Source: Clostridia bacterium (GTDB taxonomy: Bacteria; Bacillota; Clostridia; Oscillospirales; CAG-272). From it: DNA of 39,624 bases. Shown piece after piece: positions 20,420 to 23,680 of this stretch (position 1 is the first letter of the stretch; each line of letters begins with the position of its first letter). The DNA lies in contig JAFTLM010000005.1 of the NCBI GenBank assembly GCA_017455945.1, positions 1-39,624 on the forward strand, in the 5' to 3' direction. The translations under genes and the position numbers were made by a program. The notes beneath the pieces were generated by a model. It had not been told where the DNA came from. It ran no database searches and worked only from the letters and a program-made list of their open reading frames with translations.

Positions 20420-20956
20420 ATGGCTTACCCTAATTATTATCAAGGCGGATATTATCCGCAGTACCAAAATGGAGCAGTCCCCGATATGCTTAACCAGTAT
20501 AAAGGACAGTATCAGCAACCGCAAATTCAAAATCAGCAACCGTTTAGTCAACCATTTAGTCAACCAATTCAGCAACCAATGACTATGCAACCACAAACAA
20601 ACGATATGATGATATGGGTTCTTTCCGAGGGCGAAGCGCAGAGTTACCCTGTCGCCCCGAACAATAGTGTTATTCTTTGGGATAAAAACAGCGATGTAGT
20701 TTATATCAAGTCGGTCAATGCACAGAATGTTCCGTCTTTCCGTGTTCTTGACTACAAAGAGCGCACAGCCGACAATGCCCCAAAAACGCCTGCAGAGCAC
20801 GAATGCAAGTGTGGTAGTAAGTTTGTAAGTAAAGAGGATTTCAAGGCTTTAAAGAGTGAATTTGAGGCTCTGCGGAGCGAATGGGAAACATTAAAGGAAA
20901 AACCAAAAGCTAAGACCGCTAAAAAGGCGGTTGAGGAGGTAACAGATGGCGAATAA
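20420..20956 (+). CDS. Protein with Q/P/Y-rich N-terminal low-complexity domain, beta-rich core and coiled-coil tail
   Basis: 17 Gln in the first 62 aa (hand count). AAGGAG SD. Confidence 0.6.
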   Translation: MAYPNYYQGGYYPQYQNGAVPDMLNQYKGQYQQPQIQNQQPFSQPFSQPIQQPMTMQPQTNDMMIWVLSEGEAQSYPVAPNNSVILWDKNSDVVYIKSVNAQNVPSFRVLDYKERTADNAPKTPAEHECKCGSKFVSKEDFKALKSEFEALRSEWETLKEKPKAKTAKKAVEEVTDGE

Positions 20957-21158
20957 TCTTTATAATCAGTTCGGAAGTGCGCCCGTATCAAATGAAATGG
21001 CGCAGATCGTGAAACAAGTACAAGATTTTCAAAAAACGTTCAAGGGAGATGCAAAGGCACAAGTGGAACAGATGGTGGCTTCGGGCATTATTCCGCAGAG
21101 CGTATTCAATGAATTGGCACAGCAAGCCAATCAAATAATGGCTTTTATGCCAAAATAA
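20946..21158 (+). CDS. Hypothetical helical protein (70 aa)
   Basis: ORF track. GAGGAGG SD 7 nt upstream. Confidence 0.55.
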   Translation: MANNLYNQFGSAPVSNEMAQIVKQVQDFQKTFKGDAKAQVEQMVASGIIPQSVFNELAQQANQIMAFMPK

Positions 21159-21224
21159 CTATGGCTTCAAAATCGGGTGCACACGATTTTTGGCAAATAA
21201 ATATATTATAGGAGAAACAAAAAA

Positions 21225-22058
21225 ATGATGGAAACAGGATATTCCCTCGCTGACATTGCGGCGGCTACTGGCAATAGTGGCAATAACAACAATGACGGTT
21301 GGGGCGGAAACAACGGTTGGTGGATTATAATTCTGCTTCTCGCCCTCGGTCGTGGTTATAGCTTTGGCGGTGGCTACGGCGGCGGTAATGGTGGCGGTTA
21401 TGGTCAGCCCATCGTAATTGACAACGGAAGAAGTGGCTCTTGTGGTTGCGGTTGTTCGCCTTGTGCTACACAGGCTGACCTCTCTGCCGCTTTTGCAAGC
21501 AATGCAACGCTGAACGGTATTAACGGCATTGACAGCACGCTTTGCCAAGGATTTAATGGTATTCAACAGTCTTTGATGAGCGGTTTTGCAGGTGTTGACC
21601 GTTCCGTTTGCACCCTCGGTTACAATCAGGCACAGCTTGTAAATGGTCTGTCCAGAGAATTGGCAGATTGTTGCTGTGGTACTAAGCAGGCTATCGCAGA
21701 TGTTAAGTACACTATCGGTAACGAGGCTTGCGAAACCCGCCACGCACTCTACAATAGCACTCGTGACATAATCGACAATGCAAACGCTAACAGCCGTGCG
21801 GTTCTTGACTTCCTTGTAAAGGACAAGATTGACACGCTTCAGAGCGAGAACCTTGCGCTTCGTTTCAGAGCTTCTCAGAGTGAGCAGAACGCATTTATCA
21901 CCGCTAATCAGCAGGCACAGACCGCAGAGCTTATTCGCAGACTTGGCGCAGATTGTCCTTCGCCCGCTTATATCGTTCCTAATCCGAATTGTTGCTATCA
22001 GTACAATGTAAGTCCTGCTAACAATTGCGGATGTGGCTGTGGTAACGGCGGTTTCTAA
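21225..22058 (+). CDS. Gly/Cys-rich protein with YjcZ-like N-terminus (277 aa)
   Basis: GWGGNNGWWIIILLLALGRGYSFGGGYGGGNGGGYG, CGCGCSPC, CCC and a C-terminal NCGCGCGNGGF. Asn/Gln-rich helical middle. AGGAG SD. Confidence 0.6.
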   Translation: MMETGYSLADIAAATGNSGNNNNDGWGGNNGWWIIILLLALGRGYSFGGGYGGGNGGGYGQPIVIDNGRSGSCGCGCSPCATQADLSAAFASNATLNGINGIDSTLCQGFNGIQQSLMSGFAGVDRSVCTLGYNQAQLVNGLSRELADCCCGTKQAIADVKYTIGNEACETRHALYNSTRDIIDNANANSRAVLDFLVKDKIDTLQSENLALRFRASQSEQNAFITANQQAQTAELIRRLGADCPSPAYIVPNPNCCYQYNVSPANNCGCGCGNGGF

Positions 22059-22138
22059 AAATCAATAGATAAAAGATTGACTACTTTCGCATTTAGCGGA
22101 TGTTCGGGCGATAATGTTACTGCCCGATAATGACTTTC

Positions 22139-22183
22139 GGGGAGTGAACGCAGAAGGTAGGTGTTTGCTCCCCTCTATTTTTT
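22139..22183 (+). terminator. Rho-independent terminator
   Basis: GGGGAG.../...CTCCCC stem, extendable to about 13 bp with G-T pairs, then TCTATTTTTT. Preceded by a second hairpin TCGGGC/GCCCGA (22104-22127). Confidence 0.65.
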
Positions 22184-22202
22184 ATGAAAGGAAATATTTA
22201 TT

Positions 22203-22433
22203 ATGGAAATTAAAACCATAGCAGATTTGAAAACAAAACTCATCAATGCGATTGATGAAATCGATACATCAAAGGTTACTCTTTGTGATCTTAAAATTTT
22301 GGCTGACACCATTAGCGTACTTGCCAACATAAATGATAAACCTTTTGATTTTATGGAAGCGTATTCAAAAATATCTACAATGGGTTTTGGGGCAAAGCAG
22401 ACCACACTTTCTGATTTAAAGGAGGTAGAATAA
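22203..22433 (+). CDS. Hypothetical protein (76 aa)
   Basis: ORF track. Confidence 0.5.
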   Translation: MEIKTIADLKTKLINAIDEIDTSKVTLCDLKILADTISVLANINDKPFDFMEAYSKISTMGFGAKQTTLSDLKEVE

Positions 22434-22434
22434 T

Positions 22435-22893
22435 ATGGCGGCTGAATATAGCTATCCCCTCGTGCAGACGATTGCCGAGGATGAAAACATTATATTCCTT
22501 GACGGTGACAGATGTTGCAAAAAAGGATATATCACACACAGAAGCGGTTCGGGCGTGTTCCGTCTTAAAGGAGCAGGAAACGCTTGCAAGACCGTTTATA
22601 GAGTTACTTTTAACGCAAATATAGCGGTAGCACCTGCGGCAGATGGTGGCGTTTTGGGTGCGATAAGTGTAGCACTTCAAGAGGATGGAGAAACCTTGCA
22701 GAACGCAGTTGCAACAGTTACCCCTGCGGCGATTGGCGATTTCTTCAATGTTTCGCTTACCACTTTTATCGTCATTCCTTGCGGTTGTTGCGTGACCGTA
22801 TCGGTGGAAAACGTAAGCGTTGGCGCGGCAGGAGCGGCAGGCTCAGCGATTGATGTGACAAATGCAAACATCATCTTCGACCGTGTAGCGTAA
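22435..22893 (+). CDS. C1q/TNF-like (BclA C-terminal-domain-like) jelly-roll protein
   Basis: Alternating beta-strand pattern: YRVTFNANIAV, ISVALQEDGETL, VSLTTFIVIPCGCCVTVSVENVS, NANIIFDRVA. This resembles exosporium BclA-CTD proteins (from memory). Confidence 0.45.
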   Translation: MAAEYSYPLVQTIAEDENIIFLDGDRCCKKGYITHRSGSGVFRLKGAGNACKTVYRVTFNANIAVAPAADGGVLGAISVALQEDGETLQNAVATVTPAAIGDFFNVSLTTFIVIPCGCCVTVSVENVSVGAAGAAGSAIDVTNANIIFDRVA

Positions 22894-22907
22894 GAAAGGA
22901 GAAAATT

Positions 22908-23438
22908 ATGAAACATCTTGAAGAACTCAAAGAAACAATAAAACGTGAACTTGAAAAGTTCGCAAAACAGGGCGATGTGTCTGTAAACACTCTTGAAAAA
23001 ATCCATAAACTTTCCGACACTTATAAGAACCTCTGCAAGATTGAAATGCTCGAAGAAGAAGCCGAGGGCGGTTATTCTGAGGCAAGAAGCGGAAGAGGTG
23101 GCTCTTATATGCACGGTTCGTCTTATGATGACGATATGATGTATTCCGAGCGTAGAGGCAGAGGTAGAAATGCAAAGCGCGACTCTATGGGCAGATATTC
23201 AAGCGAAGATGGCTATTCCGAAGAGGACGGCTCTTACCGCGCTTCTTATGCAGATGAAATGTCTTATGCGAGAGGCGGTCAAGGGGGCAGAGGCGGTCGC
23301 TCGTCTTATGAGGGTGGATATTCCAGACACGATGCCAAAGATTGGATGATGTCACAACTTGGCGAAATGATGGAGGGTGCAGACCCAAAGGAACGCGAGG
23401 CTCTCAAAGATTGTATGAGGGCAATAGAACGCGCGTAA
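22908..23438 (+). CDS. Protein with helical ends and a central RGG/SY-rich disordered region
   Basis: The central ~95 aa are almost only G, S, Y, R, D, E and M (RGRGRN, GGQGGRGGRSSYEGGYSR). AAAGGAG SD. Confidence 0.6.
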   Translation: MKHLEELKETIKRELEKFAKQGDVSVNTLEKIHKLSDTYKNLCKIEMLEEEAEGGYSEARSGRGGSYMHGSSYDDDMMYSERRGRGRNAKRDSMGRYSSEDGYSEEDGSYRASYADEMSYARGGQGGRGGRSSYEGGYSRHDAKDWMMSQLGEMMEGADPKEREALKDCMRAIERA

Positions 23439-23458
23439 CAGAGCAGAACGGCGGTGAA

Positions 23459-23680
23459 ATGCTTTATAATATAGAAGAAAGTCCACTCGGAAAAAATGCG
23501 TATAGCGAGATTGCAGACATCTTCCCTGCTTTGCAAAAATATAAAGACGAACACAACACCGCAAATTTACAGAAATTGATGGTTGAGATTTTAGAGTTTT
23601 GCCGTTCCGTTTATGCAAGTACGCGGAGCGAGGACGAAAGAAAAATTTACTACAATTTCATTGAAAAATTGAATAAATAA
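23459..23680 (+). CDS. Hypothetical protein (73 aa)
   Basis: In-frame ATG 23459 after GGCGGTG. The track start 23342 overlaps the upstream gene. Confidence 0.45.
   Translation: MLYNIEESPLGKNAYSEIADIFPALQKYKDEHNTANLQKLMVEILEFCRSVYASTRSEDERKIYYNFIEKLNK

Follow-up and report, generated by a model that had tools for sequence, protein, structure and literature searches.

A conserved, syntenic gene module between the lysis and early regions of Clostridia phages

Introduction

Phages are known to encode small non-virion proteins at the edge of their early regions, such as phi29 p16.7, HK97 gp15 and lactococcal Sie2009, in which an N-terminal hydrophobic anchor is joined to a helical domain. Bacterial spores offer another set of comparisons, since coat and exosporium proteins lack signal peptides and are rich in Cys, Tyr, Gly and Gln. 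The trimer formed by one exosporium protein, ExsF, accepts Pro-rich leader peptides, which dock in the clefts between protomers (PMC12357932). Here we describe a gene module that recalls each of these systems in part. It occupies 19.9-23.7 kb of a 39,624-nucleotide stretch of DNA from a Clostridia bacterium (Oscillospirales, CAG-272; GenBank assembly GCA_017455945.1, contig JAFTLM010000005.1), the whole of which we call the window. The window appears to be a complete siphovirus genome, circularly permuted and about 39.6 kb in length, with full virion and lysis gene sets, and the module, whose principal genes we number g0 to g7, stands between its lysis and early genes. A first-pass annotation, made from the sequence alone, had singled out g1 to g7 as an orphan accessory cassette that might build or decorate a surface layer on the spore, the cell envelope or the virion.

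Results

Conservation of the module

The module keeps its gene order in about 160 other contigs, 82 of them viral and 80 from genomes, at 30-60% identity and nearly all from Clostridia. The viral set consists of 80 loci found by scanning IMG/VR with an alignment of g5, together with Butyrivibrio phage Ceridwen and Dulem virus 33; the genome set consists of 80 further loci from a scan of one genome per species. Translated searches of GenBank phages with g3 and g5 found the two genes adjacent in many records, including Ceridwen and Dulem virus 33. Throughout the 82 viral loci the order is always HTH-g0-g1-g2-g3-g5-g6, where HTH is a gene for a stand-alone helix-turn-helix protein, and in 50 of them a family resembling g7 comes next. 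By tblastn, g3 was matched in 79 of the 82 viral loci, g6 in 67 (and in 70 of the 80 genome loci), g0 in 66, g1 in 59, HTH in 35 and g2 in 24, while clustering of the unmatched open reading frames (ORFs) revealed divergent forms of g2 in 43 loci, of g1 in 13 and of g6 in 11.

The hosts of these relatives are gut and rumen Clostridia. The genome loci come almost entirely from metagenome-assembled genomes of Clostridia (Acutalibacteraceae, Oscillospiraceae, Lachnospiraceae and Ruminococcus), many on phage-sized contigs, and the few that are assigned to other phyla are probably binning errors. In Clostridia phages the immediate upstream neighbours of the module are always holin, lysin and BhlA/XhlA-like genes, and in pre-computed Pfam annotations of contigs that carry g5 or its relative P0250 the only families adjoining it are Phage_holin_Dp1 and GerE. 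The cultured phage Ceridwen carries the full module; it infects Butyrivibrio fibrisolvens, a non-spore-forming species, and only its lytic cycle has been observed. In Dulem virus 33 an integrase lies downstream of the module.

The cassette is therefore no orphan. The first-pass annotation had itself proposed that co-occurrence and kept order be sought across phage and prophage data, and the 160 or so diverged loci show both. They also bear out its suggestion of a coherent and so far uncharacterised module, in that the genes are co-conserved and match only PHROGs of unknown function and nothing in Pfam, NCBIfam or PADLOC.

Borders and transcription signals

The module and the signals around it lie on the + strand. 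The terminator-bounded unit begins at about 19,900 and contains nine ORFs. On its left the late/lysis operon is closed by an intrinsic terminator (19860-19897), a 17-bp stem followed by a T-run, and on its right the same scan found another (23684-23712), so that the two terminators previously proposed at 19863 and 23686 are both recovered. The seven genes of the original cassette are likewise all present as ORFs (20420 to 23680), but the unit between the terminators extends further than they do, taking in a 45-aa ORF and g0. A promoter-like site, TTGTGA-17-TATTAT with a TG upstream (19880-19908), overlaps the tail of the left terminator; it was found by consensus scan only, at 9 of 12 positions plus the TG, and several relatives have similar sites, whose match is weak. 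Of the 33 relatives examined, 25 have a hairpin resembling a terminator between their HTH gene and g0.

The internal terminator noted earlier at 22139 was missed by the consensus terminator scan and detected instead by RNA folding. It is an intrinsic terminator (22139-22185) formed by a 13-bp hairpin at about 22139-22173 and a U-tract, UCUAUUUUUU; the 96-nt stretch that was folded has a free energy of -33.9 kcal/mol, with z = -4.0 against shuffled sequences. Most relatives have neither this terminator nor g4, and in them g5 follows g3 by a median of 12 nt. The other median gaps are 137 nt between HTH and g0, 2 nt between g0 and g1, -8 nt between g1 and g2, 70 nt between g2 and g3, and 15 nt between g5 and g6. 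From the terminator at the HTH-g0 junction and this pattern of spacing it follows that the module is a separate transcription unit between the late/lysis and early operons, made of two tight strings, g0-g1-g2 and g3-(g4)-g5-g6-g7, and the tight spacing within strings (2, -8, 12 and 15 nt) implies co-expression.

Some relatives carry insertions. Four tRNA genes stand exactly between a GerE-like HTH gene and g0 in several of them (for example at 3424-3816 of locus L167), which identifies this junction as an insertion hotspot. Endonuclease genes are inserted between g2 and g3 in two unrelated phages, Dulem virus 33 (L002, 4410-4961, annotated 'endonuclease') and Clostridium perfringens phage CPD1 (L164, 4122-4745, unannotated but HNH-like by eye).

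Proteins of the module

The most conserved protein of the module is g5 (22435-22893; 152 aa; phrog_20016), a stand-alone TNF/C1q-like jelly roll with conserved cysteines at C28, C51 and C118-C119 and between 2,929 and >8,000 homologous clusters. An AlphaFold2 model of the monomer, built from a 60-sequence alignment, has a pLDDT (predicted local distance difference test) of 87.6 and a pTM (predicted template modelling score) of 0.82. When it was compared with PDB by Foldseek, the top matches were ExsF (9h3d), ExsFA (7r1m) and BxpB (8d02), with template modelling (TM) scores of about 0.7 and E of about 1e-6, followed by the Eiger TNF domain, the C-terminal domains of BclA and F-BclA, further TNF ligands and the Pgp3 C-terminal domain; the Foldseek probability was 1.00 and TM 0.62-0.71 to 9h3d, 7r1m, 8d02, 3twi, 1wck and TNF ligands. 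As modelled, g5 is a ten-strand TNF/C1q jelly roll that can be superposed on members of that superfamily. Among viral models the best matches are stand-alone proteins of 130-145 aa from uncultured gut phages, with TM up to 0.91, and TNF/C1q-like knobs dominate, including collagen/C1q proteins and 'fibritin neck whiskers'. In sequence there is no such link: g5 has no Pfam or NCBIfam match at E <= 1, BclA_C (PF18573) and C1q included, phmmer and profile searches of PDB sequences returned nothing, and hhalign of the g5 alignment (A4) with the BclA C-terminal domain, whose sequence was verified against PDB 2r6q, gave a probability of 0.1% despite the clear match in fold. The earlier description of this protein as a C1q/BclA-like jelly roll is thus right as to fold, according to AlphaFold2 and Foldseek, but does not extend to membership of any such family at the level of sequence.

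The gene upstream in most relatives, g3 (21225-22058; phrog_16490, E = 2e-48), encodes a protein of 277 residues, of which 39 are G and 16 are C (5.8% Cys), and belongs to a family of >8,000 homologous clusters. Alignment A1 begins with a conserved acidic N-terminus, after which the hydrophobic segment WWIIILLLAL stands between Gly-rich GGY runs. CGCGC comes next, then 'GFNG..C.LGYN' repeats that vary in number, an invariant CCC and, after a long helix, a Pro/Cys-rich tail. In the window the tail reads DCPSPAYIVPNPNCC...GCGCG, and its conserved form is 'DCPxPAY(V/I)V..P..NCC...GCGC'. No product of the module has a signal peptide and g3 is the only one with a hydrophobic segment, both features being absent from g0, g1, g2, g5 and g6. 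The charges flanking the segment, 0.3 K/R and 3.1 D/E on the N side and 0.9 K/R on the C side, would weakly favour an N-out/C-in orientation, and we regard g3 as a putative membrane-tethered coiled-coil stalk. The g3 profile found nothing significant among PDB sequences; Vipp1/PspA, at E of about 2, was disregarded. The hydrophobic stretch is about 11 residues long, with a maximum Kyte-Doolittle score of 1.21 over 19 residues, and the YjcZ-like N-terminus that had been attributed to g3 reduces to a resemblance in composition, without a match to TIGR01732.

Close relatives of the window (L083-L100) reveal that g2 and g3 switch jointly between alleles, being either about 35-60% or 71-99% identical to those of the window while g5 remains at 80-98%, and g2 identity co-varies with g3 identity. 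This places a recombination breakpoint between g3 and g5, precisely where the window has g4 and the internal terminator. Such swapping hints at the pattern expected of a specificity determinant, for instance in superinfection exclusion. The g4 gene itself (22203-22433), for an acidic, helical protein of 76 aa with no family match in Pfam or PHROGs, is a sporadic insert; homologues occur in 3 of the 80 genome loci (L087, L099 and L103), always between g3 and g5, and both g4 and the internal terminator are specific to the window's lineage.

The first of the two strings ends with g1 and g2. The g1 protein (20420-20956; 178 aa; phrog_21718, E = 2e-26) contains 19 Q, 15 P and 11 Y. Alignment A6 shows an N-terminus of low complexity, rich in Y/Q/P, then a conserved beta domain some 55 aa long (IWV.GE..A..Y.V....V.L.D......Y.K), and at the C-terminus a coiled coil with the motif 'YVTK.EF.AL'. 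Against Pfam and PDB it produced coiled-coil noise only; the coiled coil matched a tail-fibre PHROG at E = 0.08, and phage CPD1 has a g1 homologue (hhalign 96%). The start of g2 (20946-21158; 70 aa, helical; phrog_22984) overlaps the stop of g1 by 8-11 nt, and the two are predicted to be translationally coupled. A PADLOC match of g2 to Cmr5 at E = 0.018 was treated as noise.

The second string ends with g6 (22908-23438; 176 aa; phrog_28802), which has 17 R, 22 G, 19 S and 12 Y and in which conserved N- and C-terminal helices surround a variable, R/G/S/Y-rich disordered core with the motif SYARGRGR..RDSMGRYS (alignment A7), and with g7 (23459-23680), a helical protein of 73 aa. The latter is a short form of a 114-aa helical family that clustering of unmatched ORFs placed after g6 in the 50 viral loci mentioned above; it aligns with the C-terminal half of that family (alignment A9) and has tblastn matches in 18 close relatives. 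Counting residues confirmed the compositions first reported for g1 (Q/P/Y-rich), g3 (Gly/Cys-rich) and g6 (RGG/SY-rich).

At the head of the unit is the 45-aa ORF (19928-20065), which has a good ribosome-binding site and tblastn matches in 13 related genome loci, at 36-93% identity and always between the HTH gene and g0. It is followed by g0 (20043-20417; phrog_3754, E = 1e-30), a soluble and highly conserved protein of 124 aa, or 126 aa from a TTG at 20037, for which a search of 1.84 billion representatives returned 1,587 representative clusters. In an alignment of 45 diverged sequences the invariant residues of g0 are D16-C17, R20, C71-x2-C74, H96 and D107, so ordered that the invariant Cys is followed by a His about 80 residues on and an Asp 11 further. 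None of the 45 members has a Pfam match, no PDB sequence was matched, there was no alignment with a set of NlpC-like lysins, and nothing informative came from scanning the longer homologues for fused domains. In Tsamsa-like phages of Bacillus some homologues carry the annotation 'putative peptidase'. The invariant residues would suit a Cys-His-Asp enzyme of the papain-like kind or, alternatively, a Cys3His metal (zinc) site.

The last gene before the left terminator is HTH (19629-19844), which is conserved as a neighbour on the upstream side of the module. Its product is a stand-alone protein of 71 aa, of the sigma-70 region 4 or LuxR-GerE type (TIGR02937, sigma70-ECF region 4, E = 1.9e-4), with tblastn homologues directly upstream of g0 in 35 of the 82 viral and 34 of the 80 genome loci; a second variant, in 13 loci, scores 25.1 bits for Pfam GerE against a cut-off of 23.5 bits. 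We consider it a candidate regulator of the module. The start of this gene is overlapped by one resembling nucleoside 2-deoxyribosyltransferases (19343-19666; 107 aa; phrog_355), and the pair recurs in 18 of the 80 genome loci and 2 of the 82 viral loci.

Relatives in other viruses

Beyond the Clostridia loci parts of the module are found in other company. In CPD1, g1, a gene of the size of g2, the HNH insert, g3 and a gene for a different Cys-rich beta protein stand between KilA and a recombinase. Bacteroides phage C3_41T2LP has a g3 homologue of the same architecture beside RecT and a resolvase, and the genes after it encode two beta proteins, one with Cys and the other with a coiled coil, and a small helical protein; these neighbours have no homology detectable with the g1 and g5 profiles, and the parallel is one of gene architecture only. 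The same five-gene arrangement occurs in the crAss-like phage cr116_1 (L165, NC_055882.1) between holin/lysin genes and the capsid gene, the g3 relative (3234-4130) lying 1.2 kb downstream of genes for a holin and an L,D-carboxypeptidase. In vir215 and other viruses assigned to Methanomassiliicoccales (L170, NC_092586.1, 3878-4759) the g3 homologue adjoins a tail gene and a reverse transcriptase, which by its position may be of the kind found in diversity-generating retroelements (DGRs). The g3 family therefore occurs in viruses of unrelated architecture, siphoviruses and crAss-like phages among them, with hosts in Clostridia, Bacteroidota and, by prediction, Methanomassiliicoccales, an unusually broad span for a small accessory protein.

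The relatives of g0 include stand-alone genes in Bacillus phage Izhevsk (L171, 3968-4363), beside a Ser/Thr kinase and an Ocr-like anti-restriction gene, and in Geobacillus phage GBK2 (L172, 3980-4369), just before RecE/RecT. These stand-alone relatives sit in early or host-takeover regions. Homologues of g0 were also found in Prevotella Lak megaphages.

Searches for known functions

Searches of Pfam, NCBIfam and PADLOC matched no module product to a family, and PHROGs assigned them to families of unknown function only, apart from the weak tail-fibre match of g1. The first-pass statement that the cassette has no virion, lysis or replication function agrees with this, no such family having been matched in Pfam, PHROGs or NCBIfam. 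When the module was considered as a virion structural module, no head, tail or connector family was found in PHROGs or Pfam, and its site is after the lysis genes, behind a terminator. Nor did any protein model of PADLOC-DB link it to known anti-phage defence systems, the Cmr5 match being noise. Sequence and profile searches against solved structures with g0, g1, g3, g5 and the g7-like family found nothing significant, at the nucleotide level 20000-24000 had only two short matches among 50,697 phage records, and full-text searches of the literature found no description of the module.

Three specific candidates were rejected. F-ENA endospore appendages are built from a DUF4183 subunit, which is not present in the module. 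A precursor of a bacteriocin or other ribosomally synthesised and post-translationally modified peptide, with a C39 peptidase, would call for maturation enzymes, a transporter or a double-glycine leader, and there are none. An integrated tailless jelly-roll virus was dismissed in the absence of a packaging ATPase and a double jelly-roll capsid protein.

The phage and its other genes

The large ORFs of the window are all on the + strand, and the layout was assigned from PHROG matches. The virion genes comprise the large terminase (34303-35544), portal (35993-37318), minor head protein (1191-2393), major head protein (5813-6700), head-tail adaptor (6903-7364), tape measure protein (10364-13090) and tail proteins (13467-18146), after which come holin-like, XhlA-like and BhlA-like membrane proteins (18.3-19.3 kb). 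On the other side of the module, 3' of the right terminator, the consensus scan found a perfect TTGACA-17-TATAAT promoter for the early operon (23762-23790), whose genes include Sak4, primase, helicase and a ParB-methyltransferase (23.8-34 kb). No integrase or repressor was found among the window ORFs scanned.

Other observations concern the rest of the genome. The sole candidate wall hydrolase seen in the window is at 15939-18146, and no canonical endolysin was found adjoining the holin-like gene (18298-18591). Between the portal and minor head protein genes (37619-38916) are genes for a 151-aa collagen-like protein (37619-38074), with 16 consecutive G-X-Y triplets, and a 280-aa protein resembling leucine-rich repeat (LRR) proteins. 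They could encode fibres or adhesins associated with the head or neck, and no link between them and the module was found. The DNA methyltransferase just upstream of the terminase region (32808-33935) has a fused ParB-like N-terminal domain, and there is one tRNA gene in the early region (31973-32044).

Discussion

A possible membrane-associated complex

In proposing a role for the module we need to explain why a set of genes without recognised virion or lysis functions is kept together behind the lysis operon of so many phages. The reading that we prefer, tentatively and while rating it below an even chance, is that the module is self-contained and non-virion and builds a membrane-associated complex in the infected cell. 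We infer the interactions, topology, enzymatic activity and biological role of its products as follows. The products would assemble inside the infected cell, because none has a signal peptide. Cysteine tends to be excluded from exported proteins in Firmicutes, and the 5.8% Cys of g3 consequently argues for a location in the cytoplasm. The short hydrophobic segment of g3, flanked by Gly, would serve as a tether, with the Cys-rich coiled-coil stalk of the protein projecting into the cytoplasm, and a trimer of g5 might bind or cap the stalk, possibly at the Pro/Cys-rich tail, by analogy with ExsF and its Pro-rich leader peptides. With their oligomerising helices and Tyr/Gln/Gly/Arg-rich low-complexity regions, g1, g2 and g6 could serve as multivalent partners, while g0, as a peptidase- or transglutaminase-type Cys-His-Asp enzyme, might process or cross-link a component of the complex or a host target. 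The purpose would be host takeover at the membrane, such as the exclusion of superinfecting phages or the organisation of phage processes there. A non-virion function is favoured because the module is transcriptionally independent and because early, recombination or anti-restriction genes are the neighbours of its relatives; an autonomous function is favoured over that of a capsid-docked part because g3 is portable across unrelated virion types. We also count in favour of a non-virion role that full virion and lysis sets, from terminase to holin and XhlA-like genes, are present elsewhere in the window.

Several considerations weigh against a membrane complex. Neither experiment nor homology gives any module product a function. 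The hydrophobic stretch of g3 appears too short for a canonical transmembrane helix, which makes tethering at the membrane uncertain, and the AlphaFold2 model of g3 is poor (pLDDT 41), with helices predicted at 32-41 and 135-239. Among close relatives g3 and g5 identities do not co-vary. The Cys/His set of g0 could equally be a zinc site. Products that lack signals and are rich in Cys would fit virion or coat-like parts just as well, and in crAss001 disulfides stabilise the virion (PMC10172136); TNF-like knobs are common on virion fibres, and homologues of g3 stand beside the capsid gene in a crAss-like phage and beside tail genes in a Methanomassiliicoccales-assigned virus. The constant adjacency to lysis genes in Clostridia phages could reflect a role linked to lysis instead.

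These objections lead directly to the alternatives. The module might encode accessory fibres or decorations of the virion, in which coiled-coil fibres of g1 and g3 bearing a g5 knob are attached to the head or tail after cytoplasmic assembly, locked by disulfides in the presence of oxygen and perhaps bind gut glycans. Viral fibres typically bear knobs of the TNF/C1q kind, which also predominate among the structural matches of g5, the coiled-coil motif of g1 is fibre-like, the products are signal-less and several are Cys-rich, as would suit the disulfide-using virions of gut crassviruses, whose head fibres dock by short N-termini in hexon pockets (PMC10172136), and relatives of g3 adjoin the capsid gene in cr116_1 and the tail gene and DGR-like reverse transcriptase in vir215. 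However, the module is a separate unit after the lysis genes, outside the morphogenesis block; relatives of g3, g1 and g0 are found among recombination, replication or anti-restriction genes; g3 is spread over unrelated virion architectures, which is hard to reconcile with a capsid-docked part, and has a membrane-like hydrophobic segment; and the window already possesses collagen-like and LRR-like genes in its head module. We judge virion fibres to be unlikely, if still a serious candidate. It is improbable, but worth stating, that the products are accessories to lysis, acting at the envelope late in infection by way of holin lesions, with g0 as an extra peptidase, for example, and g3 as a membrane-active or fusion-like protein. 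The position directly downstream of holin, lysin and BhlA/XhlA-like genes would then be natural, as would that of the cr116_1 relative shortly past its holin and L,D-carboxypeptidase genes; the Gly-rich hydrophobic N-terminal peptide, long helices and Pro-rich end of g3 loosely recall spanins and fusion proteins, and the Cys-His-Asp set of g0 resembles that of CHAP/NlpC-type wall hydrolases. Set against these points, most relatives have a terminator between the lysis genes and the module, a spanin is superfluous in Gram-positive hosts, and g0 neither fits any wall-hydrolase model nor aligns with the NlpC-like lysins. The stand-alone relatives of g0 occur in early regions, and in C3_41T2LP and CPD1 the relatives of the module are found among early genes.

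The link to the spore surface suggested at the outset, that in a sporulating host the products are deposited on the coat or exosporium or remodel it, now seems very improbable. It would account for the best solved matches of g5 being the exosporium proteins ExsF/ExsFA/BxpB and the BclA C-terminal domain, for a stand-alone GerE/LuxR-type regulator upstream, for signal-less products of Cys-, Tyr-, Gly- and Gln-rich composition, and for the predominance of Clostridia, many of them sporulating, among the hosts. Yet the whole module is present in Ceridwen, which has been seen only as a lytic phage and on a Butyrivibrio host that forms no spores, the window phage has no detectable lysogeny genes, and relatives of g3 are carried by Bacteroides, crAss-like and archaeal-host viruses. 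No product matches the models for YjcZ (TIGR01732), the exosporium leader (TIGR03720), BclA_C or GerQ; the TNF-like fold is generic, so that the case depends on one generic fold and on composition; and a survey of sporulation genes in gut phages makes no mention of coat or exosporium genes. Less credible again, to the point of being nearly negligible, is the view that these are unrelated morons, neighbours with no common function. The slot is indeed a classical accessory one, with its own promoter-like site and terminators, as had been pointed out when it was first described as a site of lysogenic conversion; other phage groups carry g0 by itself or g3 by itself, and HNH genes, tRNAs and g4 have been inserted into the block in some relatives. 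But morons are sporadic by definition, whereas here the colinear conservation is near-universal and no lysogeny genes were detected in the window. Across about 160 loci, whose identity is 30-60%, six to eight genes retain their order and spacing and meet at junctions that overlap or measure 2-15 nt, and this kept order and tight spacing mark a functional unit, so that synteny essentially refutes a chance assembly of morons. The remainder of our expectation goes to some explanation outside those considered here.

Significance

A bolder form of the membrane-complex proposal, which we think distinctly unlikely, is that the module specifies a new kind of phage-made intracellular structure. This would be a membrane-nucleated, coat- or condensate-like matrix composed of the g3 stalk, the g5 trimer, g1 and g6, and the g0 enzyme, switched on by its own HTH protein of the GerE/sigma-region-4 type, with g3 portable among viruses of Gram-positive, Gram-negative and archaeal gut anaerobes. 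Whatever their role, g3 and g5 are the two largest families of the module; at 90% identity, each runs to thousands of clusters in public data from gut and rumen. Their eight-gene context is fixed, and no member of either belongs to a curated family or has been given a function. An autonomous module conserved in phages of the dominant gut Clostridia represents tractable viral 'dark matter', Ceridwen being a cultured representative. Membrane assembly or phage exclusion, if true, would constitute a new type of phage-host interface, and if the products were virion fibres a widespread trait of gut phages would be explained. The link in fold to ExsF and BclA raises the question of shared ancestry between exosporium anchoring proteins and phage proteins.

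Comparison with known systems

We rate the module as outside the known kinds of system that were tested, the fold of one component excepted. This rating carries the caveat that no function is assigned to the module, which may still prove to be a version of something familiar, for instance exclusion or the decoration of virions. The closest likeness among solved structures is that of g5 to ExsF/ExsFA/BxpB, on which its model superposes with TM of about 0.7 (0.62-0.70 for the C-terminal domains of BclA and F-BclA). Both g5 and ExsF are stand-alone proteins of some 150 aa that lack a signal peptide, and the docking of Pro-rich peptides by ExsF (PMC12357932) has a counterpart in the conserved Pro-rich motif that ends its neighbour g3. 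However, g5 is only 10-16% identical to these proteins, with no detectable sequence or profile similarity, is encoded by phages, one of them infecting a non-sporulating host, and has conserved CC motifs; unlike BclA, it has no collagen stalk in the same polypeptide. Nor does the module reproduce the exosporium nap, in which BclA is carried on ExsF/BxpB: there is no TIGR03720 leader among the ten products scanned (g0 to g7 and those of two upstream genes), and the collagen-like protein of the window belongs to the head module and has an N-terminus without a leader-like motif by eye. Nearer still in structure are the stand-alone TNF-like gut-phage proteins of BFVD, some auto-labelled 'BclA protein', which are the best matches of g5 (TM up to 0.91 on the target, 16-28% identity, 130-145 aa) and probably belong to the same broad family as phrog_20016.

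For the other components the resemblances are partial. With papain-like peptidases and transglutaminases (C39, CHAP/NlpC-P60 and Tgl) g0 shares invariant C17, H96 and D107 in the appropriate order within about 125 aa, but at every threshold tried it has no match to their hidden Markov models or to PDB sequences, and its additional invariant CxxC may signify a zinc site. The YjcZ peptides (TIGR01732) also have a Gly-rich run followed by a short, very hydrophobic Ile/Leu segment; apart from the lack of a model match, they differ in being <=50 aa long, against 277 aa for g3, whose family extends to phages of non-sporulating hosts. Finally, the plan of an anchor followed by a helix is that of phi29 p16.7, HK97 gp15 and Sie2009, and the allele swaps of g2 and g3 fit the diversity expected of a specificity determinant. 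There is no sequence relation between these proteins and g3, and those systems include no TNF-like trimer, whereas g3 is far richer in Gly and Cys and is accompanied by six or seven fixed partner genes.

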